A DNA stretch of 64,000 nucleotides from a virus (Duplodnaviria > Heunggongvirae > Uroviricota > Caudoviricetes): the IMG/VR virus record IMGVR_UViG_2974594660_000001, positions 1 to 64,000 of that record; one strand, 5' to 3'. The notes beneath the pieces are model-generated. The model saw nothing but the letters and a program-made list of their open reading frames with translations. It ran no database searches and was not told the DNA's origin. Position 1 is the first letter of the stretch. Every line of letters starts with the position of its first letter. Made by a program: the position numbers and the translations under genes. This document shows, piece by piece, positions 40,002-44,842 of the stretch.

Positions 40002-40690
40002 TCTAACTAAATCCCCAGCTCAAAGCGTCACTTGCGCAGTGCTTGCAAGTTTAGCTTGGTAGCGGGAAATCATGTATACGGATTCCCAAACCCTATATTT
40101 ATAGCTACCTTGTTTTTATAACCGCCCTATAATCTGCGGTTTCAGAACGTTGCATTGTCGCCAATGTTATCAACTAAACTGATTTAGGCTTTTTCCCCCG
40201 TTTACGGCTGGGGACGCTTTCACCTGATACGCTCGATCCGATTTGGCACGCTTTGGATCTCAACCTGCGTTATGTTTTTATGGTCATTCATTACTCGCCA
40301 TTTATAAACCGACTCCATTTATAAACGCTTTCACGGTTGCCAGACCCGACAAACGGTGCTTTGTTTGTCATAGCTTTTAACATTCCTTTACTCACCTACT
40401 CAAAAACGCTTAGCATCTACTTGAGAGCTATAAAACCGATTTACAATGAGAGCTTTCGAGTGCAATCAGGGCGCTATCGAATCCCTTACTACTTGCCGAT
40501 TATCTTATATTAAGTTAATCAGCTTGTCAATCCCTTTTATTATCGTCTACTTTTTAAGCAGATTGTACAATAAAACTACAAATCATTATTGCACATAATA
40601 TATATAGGGGTTAACTCTAATCACTGTTACCTATGATAAACTAACCAATTATGAAAGTCAATCTTTATAACTGATTAATCTATCTAGTTG

Positions 40691-40978
40691 CTACACTAAC
40701 AACTTAATGGAAATTCTAAACCCATCTTGTTTAAAGGGAATCACTATCTTTTTCCCTTGCTTACCATTGTATAACTTTTTAACCTTGCCTGTCAATAGCT
40801 GATTTAATCTTGTACCGCCAGCCATTAATGACAAAGGATAGTTTATATTGATATACGCTTGTAAATGATTTAAAGATTTAAACTTCTTATTGAGATAATT
40901 GCCGTTCTCATTAAGAACTCTTTCATCTAATAAACGATATTCAATAACGTCTACTCTTTTTGGCTTGTCTTTTCTCAT
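40691..40978 (-). CDS. hypothetical basic protein, first gene of the leftward arm
   Basis: 95 aa ORF next to the control region. Confidence 0.35.
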   Translation of the reverse strand: MRKDKPKRVDVIEYRLLDERVLNENGNYLNKKFKSLNHLQAYININYPLSLMAGGTRLNQLLTGKVKKLYNGKQGKKIVIPFKQDGFRISIKLLV

Positions 40979-41787
40979 GATAGTTACCTTTTTAATTTAC
41001 ACTTTTAACAGTGCTATAAAATGATTAGTTTATCATAAGCAACAATGATTAGATTTTTAAAGAGCAATATATCTTGTAACTATGCTCACTATACAGATAA
41101 CCTTTTAAGTTGTCAATAACTATCTTTCGCTTTTCTTAATAATCTTCTCACTAAACACTTTACAGTGTAGACTAAACGCTTGCCCGATTATTCTTACTAA
41201 CTACTTGCTAGTAACTAACTAGGTTATCCATATTGTTAAAGAGCATTACTTCTTATTGCTTGGGATACATAATATAACACTTGTATCACCTTGTAAAGCG
41301 TTAATTTGCATTAACCAATACAATCTATCTACTTGCTTTCTTGCTTTCGATATGGTGCATTACATACTATTTTAATTTATCTGTCAAACATATTTTTAAA
41401 CTATTTTACTATTATCTTATAACTTATTGATTTATATACTAATTTACTTGATCTATTAATATATCTAATCTATTCTTTCTTTTACTATATATCACACGAT
41501 TAACATACATTAATAATATTGTAAAGTTATTATCACGGATATAGTAACTTGTGACAAGTCATTGAAACCGTGTATTGTTATCCTATCAAATACTATAATA
41601 CTCTATACACTGAAAGAAAAAGAAAAGAAAATGCTATGTTTATCAATACATAATTATCAAGATAATAACTCTTATGTAAGCGTGCCAGATTGATAGCTTA
41701 TGAATAAGCCTGCAATCTATCAACCAACGATTGAGTGAGCAAGAATAACGGATATATGCCTTGCCATACATATCCTAATGACTACCC

Positions 41788-42326
41788 ACTATGGAACTAT
41801 TAACACGGTAAACAATGACTATGGAATGAATATCTATGCACTGTTACGTGAATGTTTATGCACACTGATATGATATGGCATACAAGGAACGTGAGAACGT
41901 GAACACTATCTACTATGGAATATTATATTAATCAATGGGTTACGTGAATGATACACTAGTTTACTATGGGATGTGATTATGATTAATGAGATGGCATGAT
42001 TATTTATACAGTGTGATAAATTAATTAGATAAATCAATGACTTACTATGGAATAATATATTGTCTACTATTTAGGATAATTCCTATTTACTATTGGATTG
42101 TGAAGTGATACAATGTTAACCCCTTTCCCCCTTTTACGAAAACGAGAGAGCGTGCTAGCATCCCGTACCACGAAAAGGAAGTATAATAATGAGGATATCC
42201 CTATATTAATAGTGACTATGAAACTATTTACTATGTTATTAATGACTATGAGGGAATGACCTGACATCAAGGACTATGAGGTGGCATCAACCATTTTATC
42301 AGAGTTATATGACATGGCATCAACCT
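41788..42326. repeat. iteron-like array of at least 9 ACTATG(G/A)(A/G)(A/G) direct repeats plus two CATGGCATCAACC copies in an AT-rich ORF-free control region
   Basis: ACTATGGAA at 41788, 41818, 41912 and 42045; ACTATGGGA at 41963; ACTATTGGA at 42089; ACTATGAAA at 42215; ACTATGAGG at 42245 and 42273; GGCATCAACC at 42283 and 42317. Confidence 0.6.
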
Positions 42327-42709
42327 TGTTTCAACTATTTATTTTATTTCCAGTGTAAGGCGTAAGCTTTTAAGAAAAAGTGTACTAACGTACATGTGAC
42401 TATAAGAAATAACCTCTTAGGAATAATACTCTTATAATCTTTCTCTGAATTAAGAGAGATTAGAAATTTATTAACCTCTTAATTCTTTTTCTATTAACTC
42501 TTCCTTACTTTCATTGCTTCCTTTATGACCTCCCATCTAGCAGTGTCTATATGACATCCCATCAATCTTTACCTTCCTTTCTTCAGAGTAAAATAAATTT
42601 ATTTGTAATGATTTCTTTTATCAGAGACTAGAATAGGTTGAAGAGCTTCCAAGGTTTGTATCAGAGGGAAGTAGCGGAGGTGGAGGGAAATGTTTTAAGG
42701 AGTGATGTA

Positions 42710-43078
42710 ATGACAGACAATGTAAATGAAAATGGTCGTAACATCCAAACTGGTAAGTTCTTAAAAGGTAACAGTTTTGGTAAAGGTCGTCCTAAAGGTT
42801 CTCGGAATAAAATGACACAACGAATGCTTGATAGAGTTTGTGAACGAAGTGAAGATGGTTTGTCCATGGAAGAGATTATGATGGATATTGCACAAGATCC
42901 TAATATGCCTGCTGAGTTAAGATTCAAAGCTGCTGCCAAGGTTGCAGATATTGTTTATCCTAAAGCTTCTTCAGTTGAAGTTAAGATGGATGATAAAGAG
43001 CAAATGACTAAGACACAGATTGATGACCGACTGAAGATGTTACTAGCTGAAACAGTTAAACGAGATAAAAAAGAATAA
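42710..43078 (+). CDS. small basic protein upstream of terL; candidate small terminase subunit or DNA-binding protein
   Basis: ATG at 42710 preceded by an AAGGAG RBS. The TTG-extended ORF from 42638 is less likely. Basic GKGRPKGSRNK segment. Confidence 0.3.
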   Translation: MTDNVNENGRNIQTGKFLKGNSFGKGRPKGSRNKMTQRMLDRVCERSEDGLSMEEIMMDIAQDPNMPAELRFKAAAKVADIVYPKASSVEVKMDDKEQMTKTQIDDRLKMLLAETVKRDKKE

Positions 43079-43133
43079 CCCCGACATGGAGAGCGAAGTC
43101 CCCGCTCTTTAAATTATAGGGACTCTTATCTAT

Positions 43134-43207
43134 AGGGGATTAGTATATTGGTATTATAATTGCCTCCAAAGCTAGAGAAGAGGGTTCGATTCCTTCATCC
43201 CCTGCCA
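43134..43207 (+). tRNA. tRNA-like gene (possibly tRNA-Trp, anticodon CCA) with an imperfect anticodon stem
   Basis: Acceptor AGGGGAT/ATCCCCT plus discriminator G and encoded CCA. T-arm GAGGGTTCGATTCCTTC. Candidate anticodon loop CTCCAAA; the anticodon stem has two mismatches. Confidence 0.5.
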
Positions 43208-43270
43208 ATTAGTCATGCTTACTGGGGCGGACGTTAAACTAAGAATCCAGTCTTAATAAGGTAAGGAGAA

Positions 43271-43303
43271 GGCCTCGCAGGAGGCCGTTTCTTTTTTGTT
43301 TGT
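43271..43303 (+). terminator. rho-independent terminator
   Basis: GGCCTC-GCAG-GAGGCC followed by GTTTCTTTTTTGTTTG. Confidence 0.6.
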
Positions 43304-43351
43304 AAAATTTTTCGTCGATAGACGTATTCAATGAGGATATCCGGAGGAACT

Positions 43352-44842
43352 ATGGATTTCGATTTAGATAATATTGACATCGATAGTCTCCCAGAATCTG
43401 TGAAATGGGAAATAATTGATTTACTTGAAGAAAGAGAACGAGTAATAATGTATAATCAAGTAGATAAATTTAAACCATATCCATTTCAAAAAGAGTTTTA
43501 TGCTGCCAGTAAGAAGTATAAAAGGCGTTTCCTATGTGCGGCTAACCGTGTTGGTAAGTCGTTCTCGGAAGCAGTAGAGGTGTACTATCATTTGTCAGGA
43601 CTTTATCCAGATTGGTGGGAAGGCCATCGCTTTAACAAACCCATTCTTCTATGGGCTGTAGGTATTACAGGTGATTCAACAAGGAAGGTACTACAAAAGG
43701 AACTATTTGGAACACCGATGGGGAAAGATAAGGATGCATTGGGAACAGGCGCAATCCCTAGAGAACTGATTGACATTGAGAGCTTAGAAAAAGACGGGAA
43801 CATCATCAAGATTGCTAAGATCAAGCATTTTGACTCGAATGGTGATTTCGACGGTTGGTCTACGCTGGAATTCCGCTCAACGCAACAGGGCGAGCACGTC
43901 CTTATGGGAGCCACGGTTGATTACATTTGGCTAGATGAAGAAGACCCGTTTAAGTCCATGCAAATTTATGCTCAGTGTGTTACTCGTACAGCTACTACAG
44001 GTGGTTTGATTACGATTACTGCAACACCTGAGAATGGACTTACATCGCTTGTTGATCTATTTATGAAGAATGACAAAGGTTATTTATATTTTCAGAATGC
44101 TACTTGGGACGATGCACCGCACTTAGATGAAGAAACTAAAAAAGAGTTGCTTGCAAGTATTCCAGAATGGCAACATGAAATGAGGAGCAGAGGTATTCCT
44201 ATGATGGGTGAAGGTTTAATTTATGACGTAAATGAGGCTGAAATTACTGTACCACCGTTTGAAATTCCTTCACATTGGAAGAGAGTTTGTGCAGTGGATA
44301 TTGGTATTAGTCACGATACAGCAGCAGTTTGGTCGGCATATGATGCCGCAGCTGATACAGTTTATATCTATGACTGTTATCATGCACAAGCAGGTGTACC
44401 ATCATTACATGCAACAGCAATAAATTCTAGAGGAACGTGGATACCTGTTATTTTACCACACGATGCTGACAATACTGAAAGAGGTTCAGGACGTTCAGTT
44501 GCTTCATACTATAGAGAAGCTTCTGTAAATGTTATGCCAGAAACATTCTATAATCCAATTGACTGGGATGGAAACAAGAATAACTTTGTTGAACCAGGGA
44601 TTATGAATATTTTACAAAGAATGAAGACTGGACGTTTAAAAGTGTTTAGCACATGTGGTCGGTTCTTCGAAGAGATGAGAAGATACCATAGAAAAGATGG
44701 TAAGATAGTTAAGAAGTTTGATGACACCATGGACGCAGCTAGATACTCTGTCTTATCAGTGGTTCATCGTGGTGTAAGTGAAGGTGAAGCTAACGCTGGA
44801 TACAAAGCATCCTTTAATGATGGATGGAATTGGAACTACTAA
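43352..44842 (+). CDS. terL: terminase large subunit
   Basis: Walker A-like CAANRVGKS, an ATPase coupling region, and a C-terminal RNaseH-like nuclease motif (VCAVDIGISHDTAA). The start is set at ATG 43352, which has a GGAGGA RBS. Confidence 0.85.
   Translation: MDFDLDNIDIDSLPESVKWEIIDLLEERERVIMYNQVDKFKPYPFQKEFYAASKKYKRRFLCAANRVGKSFSEAVEVYYHLSGLYPDWWEGHRFNKPILLWAVGITGDSTRKVLQKELFGTPMGKDKDALGTGAIPRELIDIESLEKDGNIIKIAKIKHFDSNGDFDGWSTLEFRSTQQGEHVLMGATVDYIWLDEEDPFKSMQIYAQCVTRTATTGGLITITATPENGLTSLVDLFMKNDKGYLYFQNATWDDAPHLDEETKKELLASIPEWQHEMRSRGIPMMGEGLIYDVNEAEITVPPFEIPSHWKRVCAVDIGISHDTAAVWSAYDAAADTVYIYDCYHAQAGVPSLHATAINSRGTWIPVILPHDADNTERGSGRSVASYYREASVNVMPETFYNPIDWDGNKNNFVEPGIMNILQRMKTGRLKVFSTCGRFFEEMRRYHRKDGKIVKKFDDTMDAARYSVLSVVHRGVSEGEANAGYKASFNDGWNWNY

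Follow-up and report, generated by a model that had tools for sequence, protein, structure and literature searches.

Short one-strand repeats flank a conserved core in the divergent intergenic region of Cronobacter phage vB_CsaP_009: a candidate DNA-packaging junction

RESULTS

The region between the early and late genes of vB_CsaP_009

We examined a 1,731-bp divergent intergenic region in positions 1 to 64,000 (the window, a stretch of 64 kb) of the tailed-phage record IMGVR_UViG_2974594660_000001, where copies of the hexamer ACTATG surround a short conserved core upstream of the terminase genes. The window is 100% identical, with the same coordinates, to LC519601.1, the 92,122-bp genome of Cronobacter phage vB_CsaP_009 (Csa009; Grimontviridae, Privateervirus). 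To the left of the gap lies a leftward block of small early-type genes, the last of which, ORF68 (40691-40978), encodes 95 amino acids and has no family match; an Srd-like anti-sigma gene is found farther left. To the right, a rightward late block comprises ORF69, a tRNA-Trp gene, the large terminase gene (TerL), and the portal, scaffold, and head genes. Five Proteus phages, namely, Privateer, 3H10_20, P59, YP1, and J3S, carry the region at 87-93% identity. The gap had initially been described from its sequence as free of open reading frames (ORFs). It contains no annotated coding sequence, but small ORFs of at most 67 amino acids overlap it, some of which are annotated in two relatives. Parts of the arrays differ among relatives by non-triplet indels, such as a 28-bp deletion in YP1, and these parts are therefore noncoding. 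An Rfam scan of 40500-43400 returned only the tRNA-Trp and one subthreshold chance match, and no known RNA family.

The gene that follows the gap was described at the outset as terS-like, and profile searches bear this out. A profile built from 31 ORF69 homologues matched only small terminase (TerS) chains in the PDB, namely, those of phages NV1 (7joq, E = 4e-4) and PaP3 (6w7t, E = 0.011); ORF69 also matches phrog_8771 and DUF5681. An AlphaFold model of ORF69 has low confidence (pLDDT of 69), and its top Foldseek match, PaP3 TerS, is not significant (E = 0.39). In IMG/VR, a scan with ORF69 recovered only Privateer, 7-11, and one 5.9-kb contig. By tblastn, TerL is 85% identical to TerL of phage 7-11 and about 61% identical to those of the phiEco32 group (ECBP2, SU7, and KBNP1711), with 111 Pseudomonas phage records matching at lower identity. 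Short exact repeats have been mapped at the genome ends of members of the terminase clade that contains phiEco32 and LUZ24.

ACTATG repeats are confined to one strand of the gap

Between positions 41788 and 42280, ACTATG occurs nine times on the plus strand and never on the minus strand. About 0.15 copies per strand would be expected in such a stretch given the genome-wide counts of 23 plus-strand and 17 minus-strand copies in 92,122 bp (Poisson P of approximately 1e-13), and all four genomic copies of ACTATGGAA fall in the same region. The clustered repeat feature is thus real and nonrandom. The original prediction had counted at least nine copies of ACTATG(G/A)RR and had named similar repeat density elsewhere in the genome as an outcome that would refute it. 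The density elsewhere is not similar, the cluster being confined to this locus, and the count of nine stands for ACTATG itself; only eight copies fit the longer consensus, the ninth reading ACTATGTTA, and there are four to five additional ACTATT variants. With the variants included, the spacings between copies are 30, 94, 51, 81, 22, 23, 126, 15, 15, and 28 bp, and we detected no helical phasing among the repeats (Rayleigh p of 0.49-0.81).

The copies form a left and a right array (Table 1). Interspersed among the ACTATGG units of the left array are two copies each of GTTACGTGAATG (41843 and 41939), GAACGTGA (in tandem), and ATGAnATGGCAT, while GAACGTGAGAACGTGAAC lies at 41887-41904. Of the duplicated motifs reported initially, GTTACGTGAATG and GAACGTGAGAACGTGAAC are as described, whereas CATGGCATCAACC occurs exactly only once, at 42313, and TGGCATCAACC twice. 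An 18-mer in the left array, GGAATGAATATCTATGCA (41823-41840), is shared with the junction of Cronobacter phage GAP52 (approximately 1701-1718). It lies on the opposite strand there, and array units therefore appear to move and invert between genera.

The strand asymmetry is retained among the six relatives (Csa009 and the five Proteus phages), each of which carries 9-12 plus-strand copies of ACTATG and none on the minus strand. To compare the segments of the gap, we scored invariant and gap columns in an alignment of these six phages. The distal part of the left array (41781-41950) is hypervariable, with 25% invariant and 53% gap columns, and ACTATGG and other units have been gained, lost, and reshuffled within it. 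In contrast, the core-proximal left copies (41951-42099; 72% invariant, 1% gap) are fixed, with ACTATGG at -164 and -83 relative to box 1 of the core described below. The core itself (42100-42205) is 91% invariant with 1% gap columns, the right array (42206-42310) is again variable (46% and 33%), and the noncoding leader that follows (42311-42709) shows the highest conservation within the gap (94% and 2%). At the other end, the early-promoter block (40979-41640) is 46% invariant with 38% gap columns up to position 41360 and 80% invariant with 5% gap columns from 41361 onward. A constant motif, a constant orientation, and fixed proximal copies amid drift of the arrays would fit a binding platform evolving together with the protein that it binds.

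The core between the arrays resembles mapped genome ends

The two arrays flank a core that aligns across Privateervirus, Moazamivirus, Crifsvirus, Lahexavirus, Aquaneticvirus, and a metagenome contig. We found it in phages 7-11, SE131, GAP52, LAh_6, and APT65, in a 5.9-kb IMG/VR contig, and in two metagenome/Logan contigs of about 90 kb. Three short elements stand out within it, namely, box 1, a GCT/AGC palindrome, and box 2 (Table 1; slashes mark known or predicted boundaries), and each resembles sequence at or near experimentally characterized ends of phages with related terminases.

Box 1 and the palindrome recall phiEco32, whose ends have been mapped experimentally: a 193-bp repeat is present at both ends of its record, in the equivalent divergent gap. 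At the right end of that repeat, a box is followed by 21 nt and GGCT/, and an inverted copy is present at the left end. Aligned at this boundary, the phiEco32 repeat ends with CTCCCCCTTTTTAGGAAACGCGCGGCGAGCGGCT/AGG, while the Csa009 core reads AACCCCTTTCCCCCTTTTACGAAAACGAGAGAGCGTGCT/AGC and that of GAP52 reads CCCCTTTTCTGAGTTCGAGACTGCCAGCT/AGC; GAP52 has CCCCTTTT followed by 17 nt and CAGCT/AGC. In SU10, CCCTTTTTTA boxes have been reported 21 nt from the repeat end, and box 1 matches them. A profile of eight Grimontviridae-type cores, searched with nhmmer, found its best match in nucleotides 160-181 of the phiEco32 direct terminal repeat (E = 0.05 in an 11-kb database). Among 30 Kuravirus repeats, the most conserved part was reported to be nucleotides 130-170. 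When reverse complemented, the first 28 nt of the phiEco32 repeat read TTCCCCTTTAAAGAGTGAGAGAAAGGCT, so that both phiEco32 boundaries carry one box-spacer-GCT/ module in inverted orientation. In these inverted copies at the repeat ends (nucleotides 1-28 and 160-193), a C4-5T3-5 box is separated by a purine-rich spacer of 17-21 nt from GGCT/; this inversion implies symmetric terminase recognition at both boundaries.

Box 2 instead points to the LUZ24 group. The sequence GAGGAT/ATCCCT (42191-42202) matches the right boundary of Pseudomonas putida phage tf, GAGAT/ATCCCTTGA, and the LUZ24 boundary, GGGAAT/ATCCCTTGA. The tf right boundary was previously mapped by primer extension, and GATATCcc was proposed as the core site of its terminase. 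A 16-mer of box 2, AATAATGAGGATATCC, is identical in 7-11. In addition, box 1 shares the 9-mer CCCCTTTCC with the PaP3 cos 20-mer, GCCGGCCCCTTTCCGCGTTA, which begins the PaP3 record, and PaP3 TerS was shown to bind this 20-mer specifically in a gel-shift assay.

We also considered whether the core could be the site of a single palindromic cut that leaves no repeat. This is unsupported, since neither Privateer nor other genera conserve the CCTTTT and AAAAGG arms that flank GCTAGC. DNA folding of the core gave no significant hairpin (z = -0.93).

Other lineages carry their own one-strand repeats at the same place

We searched for the most overrepresented one-strand hexamer around the core in each lineage and compared its count with those in 300 shuffled sequences. 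Six of the seven other lineages have an overrepresented one-strand hexamer of their own, mostly on both sides of the core. No shuffle reached the observed count for ACTATG in Csa009 (9 copies), ATTGAG in GAP52 (7 copies), GGCATG in LAh_6 (7 copies), or CGTGTG in SE131 (6 copies). The counts were reached in 2 of 300 shuffles for CGTGTG in 7-11 (6 copies), in 7 for GCATGG in APT65 (5 copies), and in 24 for ATGATA in the metagenome contig L027 (5 copies), where the enrichment is weaker. For phiEco32, no hexamer is enriched (top count of 3, reached in 280 of 300 shuffles), and its ACGGGGA repeats were found by direct inspection rather than by this test.

In the three phages with mapped ends (phiEco32, tf, and LUZ24), repeats of this kind are found within the terminal repeat, 40-130 nt from its right boundary. 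Three copies of ACGGGGA are inside the phiEco32 repeat, with two more upstream; CCACTGGATGMAT..ACAG occurs twice inside the tf repeat and once 65 nt outside it; and four AGGGTAT-type copies are inside the LUZ24 repeat. Phage T7, in which we counted the copies directly, has 13 one-strand CCTAAAG units and variants to the left of, inside, and to the right of its 160-bp repeat; the T7 RefSeq record carries no annotation of short-repeat arrays. The 17-mer ACTGGATGAATTAACAG is identical in the 7-11-like Salmonella phage SE131 (reverse complement of 411-427) and tf (253-272), within arrays beside the junction cores of both. We estimate that about 2e-4 such matches would be expected by chance. With respect to terS, the 17-mer points in opposite directions in SE131 and tf.

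Promoters, boxes, and leader elements elsewhere in the gap

The left third of the gap (41000-41640) holds leftward early promoters and an AT-rich tract. The hexamers and 17-nt spacing of the best promoter, at 41088-41116, are the same as those of the strongest predicted early promoter of phage 7-11. The AT content at 41380-41640 had been put above 80%; it is 77.8%, with 82% in the best 100-bp window, but the tract is still the most AT-rich 260 bp of the window. This tract is separated from the first repeat by about 160 bp and carries a promoter as well, and it seems better explained as part of the early-promoter block, a unit separate from the proposed junction. Mirror-image boxes, each composed of a T-tract and (T/C)CAGTGTA, bracket the segment that contains the repeats and the core. 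They could be promoter or pause elements; TCTATACACTGAAA of the left box and TTTATTTTATTTC of the right box are both common to 7-11, and similar T-tract/CAGTGTA boxes occur in 7-11, GAP52, LAh_6, APT65, and L027.

In the leader, a hairpin with a 10-bp stem (42447-42485) is followed by TTTTTCT. Closer to terS lies a phiEco32-type element, TGTAATGATTTC, and the same position in 7-11, SE131, and L027 reads GTAATGTTTT. A loose search with TGATGTWDTA for the sigma-promoter motifs of 7-11 and phiEco32 was uninformative.

The tRNA-Trp gene (43134-43207) lies between terS and terL, where relatives carry one to five tRNA genes, and is followed by a G+C-rich hairpin (43271-43286) that scores as a terminator on both strands. 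TerL is uninterrupted in vB_CsaP_009 but matches in two pieces in two of the Proteus phages; the gene between the pieces is annotated as an HNH endonuclease in 3H10_20 and encodes a hypothetical protein in YP1. Runs of N occur within or near the gap in 3H10_20 (equivalent to approximately 41020-41070) and L030 (about 200 bp upstream of its core), and 3H10_20 also has a duplicated early-promoter block; the locus seems hard to assemble.

TABLE 1 Features in and beside the divergent intergenic region of vB_CsaP_009
Feature	Coordinates	Strand	Description
Divergent intergenic region	40979-42709		Lies between annotated coding sequences of leftward early ORF68 and rightward TerS-like ORF69
Sigma70-like early promoter, TTGACA-17-TATAGT	41088-41116	-	11 of 12 consensus positions; conserved in relatives
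Sigma70-like promoter, TTTACA-17-TATTAT	41269-41297	-	Consensus scan only
AT-rich tract	41366-41625		78.8% AT
Sigma70-like promoter, TTGTCA-17-GATAAT	41529-41557	-	Inside AT-rich tract
T-tract plus TCAGTGTA box	41606-41631	-	Mirror partner of box at 42338-42357
Imperfect palindrome, GGATATATGCC..CATACATATCC (GGATAT..ATATCC)	41750-41775		80% complementary; moderately conserved in relatives
Left array	41788-42097	+	ACTATGG x5 (41788, 41818, 41912, 41963, 42044); ACTATT variants at 42066 and 42089
Conserved core	42100-42205	+	Proposed terminase recognition/cleavage site
Box 1, CCCCTTTCCCCCTTTT	42120-42135	+	CCCCCTTTT is unique to this site in the 92-kb genome
GCT/AGC palindrome	42154-42159		About 20 nt after box 1; predicted cut 42156/42157 by the phiEco32 rule
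Box 2, AATAATGAGGATATCCC	42185-42201	+	Predicted cut 42196/42197 (GGAT/ATCCC) by the tf/LUZ24 rule
Right array	42215-42281	+	ACTATG x4 (42215, 42230, 42245, 42273)
Second repeat family, ATGAnnTGrCATCAA x3	42256-42325	+	Related copies at 41870 and 41986
T-tract plus CCAGTGTA box	42338-42357	+	Faces right
TATGAC(C/A)TCCCATC x2	42524-42563	+	Conserved across genera; 14-16-mer common to 7-11 and GAP52; 3-4 copies in 7-11, GAP52, and APT65
TGTAATGATTTC	42604-42615	+	phiEco32-type (tAATGTAtA) element; candidate phage-sigma late promoter for terS-terL
ORF69	42710-43078	+	Small terminase (TerS) homologue, PaP3/NV1 type, by profile search
TerL	43352-44842	+	Large terminase

DISCUSSION

A candidate concatemer junction and packaging site

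The results presented above led us to consider how the repeats, the core, and the adjacent terminase genes could be parts of one system. On balance, we lean toward the view that positions 41750-42330 are both the concatemer junction and the site of DNA packaging, in a phage whose genome carries short direct terminal repeats. Several observations support this view: the arrays bracket a core that matches boundaries of phiEco32, tf, and LUZ24 and the PaP3 cos oligonucleotide; the next gene encodes a PaP3-type TerS; TerL is about 61% identical to that of the phiEco32 group, for which 193-bp repeats were mapped in the equivalent gap; and analogous repeats lie within the mapped repeats of phiEco32, tf, and LUZ24, follow the pattern seen in T7, and in Csa009 are clustered only at this locus. 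The terminase clade, the position of the gap, and the boundary sequence are thus those of a short-repeat junction, the boundary matches being short and of modest statistical support, and the many irregularly spaced one-strand copies on both sides of the core are those of a T7-type array.

In the mechanism that we propose, the terminase would recognize replicated DNA and cut it within the core, which would set the terminase-proximal genome end somewhere in 42150-42200. The ACTATG(G) copies on either side would serve as an accessory multisite platform, most plausibly for oligomeric TerS (ORF69), which, when bound to the repeats, would wrap, bend, or loop the DNA and position TerL on the core, in the manner of pacL and pacR around pacC in SPP1 or of the cosB R sites beside cosN in lambda. 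If phiEco32, tf, and LUZ24 are a guide, the terminal repeat probably includes at least those left copies that are nearest the core. For the left boundary of that repeat, the imperfect palindrome at 41750-41775 is a speculative candidate; its ATATCC arm repeats, in inverted orientation, the GGATAT box of the core, 399 nt away, and a TACAGTG-like site near 42010 is another candidate.

A number of points weigh against this interpretation. Physical ends have not been mapped in any phage of the Grimontviridae, and PhageTerm analysis of Privateer reported a "novel ends type". A search upstream of the core for an inverted left-boundary module like that of phiEco32 found none. The core resembles phiEco32 over a short length and with modest statistical support (E = 0.05 in an 11-kb database), and the 9-mer shared with PaP3 would by our estimate arise by chance roughly 1% of the time. 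The two cut-site predictions are 40 nt apart. The oligonucleotide bound by PaP3 TerS corresponds to the core and not to any repeat. A protein other than TerS may read ACTATGG, although TerS appears the most plausible reader. With respect to terS, the repeats run the other way in tf, and the 18-mer is inverted in GAP52. Finally, breaks in the records and contigs of relatives disagree, that of J3S lying near 42260 and that of SE131 about 55 nt to the left of box 1. Because these breaks are mutually discordant, they are uninformative as proxies for genome ends. The records of relatives are circularized or arbitrarily opened, the SE131 record has no terminal repeat, primers from the raw Privateer contig map to about 65.7 kb, and the records of 3H10_20 and L030 contain runs of N.

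Weighing other functions for the repeats

A promoter or regulatory function is suggested by phage 7-11, where a four-copy tgtGATGTTATA array in the homologous gap, to the left of the core, was published as sigma-dependent "late promoters". Applied to vB_CsaP_009, the repeats would be tandem promoters or regulator sites for the phage ECF sigma factor, and they, AATGACTATGG above all, would be -10-like elements or activator sites for late transcription into terS-terL, a transcription possibly coupled to packaging, as at the T7 junction. The phage does encode an ECF sigma factor (ORF113), all ACTATG copies are directed toward the late genes, and, with a 1-nt gap permitted, AATGACTAT bears a loose resemblance to tAATGTAtA and TGATGTTATA. 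However, neither ACTATGG nor AATGACTAT is found upstream of other middle or late operons, AATGACTAT being restricted to this locus, whereas sigma promoters of phiEco32 are dispersed upstream of genes 6, 13, 26, 40, 58, and 68. Nor is it promoter-like to have 9-12 copies at 15-126-bp spacing that start more than 900 bp before the first gene, and a better TAATG-type element, conserved across genera, is available at 42604-42615. Given as well that the counterparts of these repeats in phiEco32, tf, and LUZ24 are found within terminal repeats that have been mapped, we regard a promoter function as unlikely; the 7-11 copies themselves (844-1102) sit 110-370 bp to the left of the conserved core. The original prediction had offered three readings, namely, an iteron origin, a cluster of transcription-factor sites, and a packaging region. 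Of these, the second gained no positive evidence, and only the packaging reading did, through the core matches and the PaP3-type TerS.

We consider a replication origin quite unlikely. In this scenario, the repeats would be iterons for a phage initiator and the tract at 41366-41625 an unwinding element, perhaps primed from the leftward early promoters as at the primary origin of T7. The one-strand direct repeats do form a cluster, 150-400 bp away from the segment of highest AT content in the window, as direct repeats lie near AT-rich segments in the lambda origin and plasmid oriV; three promoters read through or into the tract; and the minimum of the cumulative GC skew falls at 42584. Because the transcription strand switches at the same place, the minimum does not count as independent evidence. 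Most defining features of iteron origins fail here: the repeat units are 7-9 bp rather than 17-22 bp, their spacing of 15-126 bp is unphased, and phages about 90% identical to one another differ in copy number and spacing. There is also no adjacent initiator gene, since the flanks are ORF68 and TerS and the replication genes are at least 40 kb away (polymerase and primase-helicase at 83-92 kb), and the core matches genome ends but not any known origin. It is very unlikely, in our estimation, that the repeats are clustered sites for site-specific single-strand nicking close to the genome end, akin to the TACT/RTGMC nick sites in tf and to TACTATGAC in PaP3 and LUZ24. The sequence TACTATG, present in four copies, agrees with 7 of the 9 positions of the tf consensus TACTRTGMC, all copies are on one strand, the terminase shares ancestry with the LUZ24 group, and a nick cluster could explain the "novel ends type" of Privateer. 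Yet no copy matches the full 9-mer, and tf does not nick variants with a single substitution. Outside the locus, ACTATG shows no strand bias (14 plus-strand and 17 minus-strand copies), whereas sites of the tf type are scattered and occupy one strand exclusively, and the PaP3 junction has no TACTRTGMC site.

A broader proposal joins two claims and is, taken as a whole, quite improbable. It holds that the terminase, or a nickase related to the tf TACT/RTG type, cuts or nicks several ACTATGG copies and thereby produces heterogeneous or staggered ends or a repeat of variable length, which would explain the Privateer result. It further holds that the mechanism of short-repeat packaging requires lineage-specific one-strand arrays running through the junction, and that T7-like phages and the unrelated supergroup of phiEco32, 7-11, and LUZ24 acquired them convergently.

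Relation to known packaging systems

As a packaging site, the junction is best filed as a known type of system, a short-terminal-repeat site with flanking short-repeat arrays. Its closest counterpart is the Kuravirus group (phiEco32, SU10, and YF01), which has an equivalent divergent gap with early genes leftward and terS/terL rightward. In phiEco32, as in vB_CsaP_009, a box of a C-run and a T-run precedes the GCT/ cut by about 20 nt, and same-strand repeats lie 65-130 nt upstream of the cut. The phiEco32 motif differs (ACGGGGA rather than ACTATGG), as does the size of the gap (0.84 kb versus 1.7 kb). Unlike phiEco32, Csa009 has an additional array on the right side of its core and far more repeat copies, and lacks a detectable inverted left module. 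The LUZ24 group (a 186-bp repeat in tf, a 184-bp repeat in LUZ24, and the cos 20-mer of PaP3) shares the AT/ATCCCT motif of box 2 and a homologous TerS and has direct repeats inside the terminal repeat, but the repeat sequences and copy numbers are different. The gene modules around the tf junction are reversed, with convergent rather than divergent arms, and tf has dispersed one-strand nicks that are not indicated in vB_CsaP_009.

The T7 junction resembles that of vB_CsaP_009 in its irregularly spaced one-strand heptamers, which lie within and on both sides of a short terminal repeat and were reportedly called SRL and SRR by Dunn and Studier in 1983. However, the terminase and lineage of T7 are unrelated, and there is no sequence similarity. 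Packaging in T7 is coupled to the phage's own RNA polymerase, whereas vB_CsaP_009 relies on the host enzyme together with a phage sigma factor. TerS-binding repeats beside the cut site are also known from SPP1, with pacL and pacR around pacC, and from lambda, with the R sites of cosB beside cosN. These systems are similar in having short boxes beside or around a conserved cleavage segment upstream of terS and an oligomeric helix-turn-helix TerS. Their box sequences are unrelated to the repeats described here, and their ends differ from the short exact repeat expected in vB_CsaP_009, SPP1 being packaged by a headful mechanism and lambda having cohesive ends. PaP3 TerS has been reported to be about 22% identical to SF6 TerS.

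Implications for the Grimontviridae

No function had previously been assigned to this gap in this phage group, and packaging would be an ordinary one. If the genome ends do lie in the core, those of the Grimontviridae, including Privateer, 7-11, GAP52, and their relatives, several of which have been proposed for therapy, are predicted to within about 50 bp on one side. The gap repeats of 7-11 that were published as "late promoters" may instead belong to a packaging site. The locus is hypervariable and prone to assembly problems, and it should serve as the opening point of these genomes for annotation. More broadly, these phages would represent a second, independent supergroup with junction arrays like those of T7, in this case alongside a TerS family (PaP3/NV1) that has been structurally characterized.

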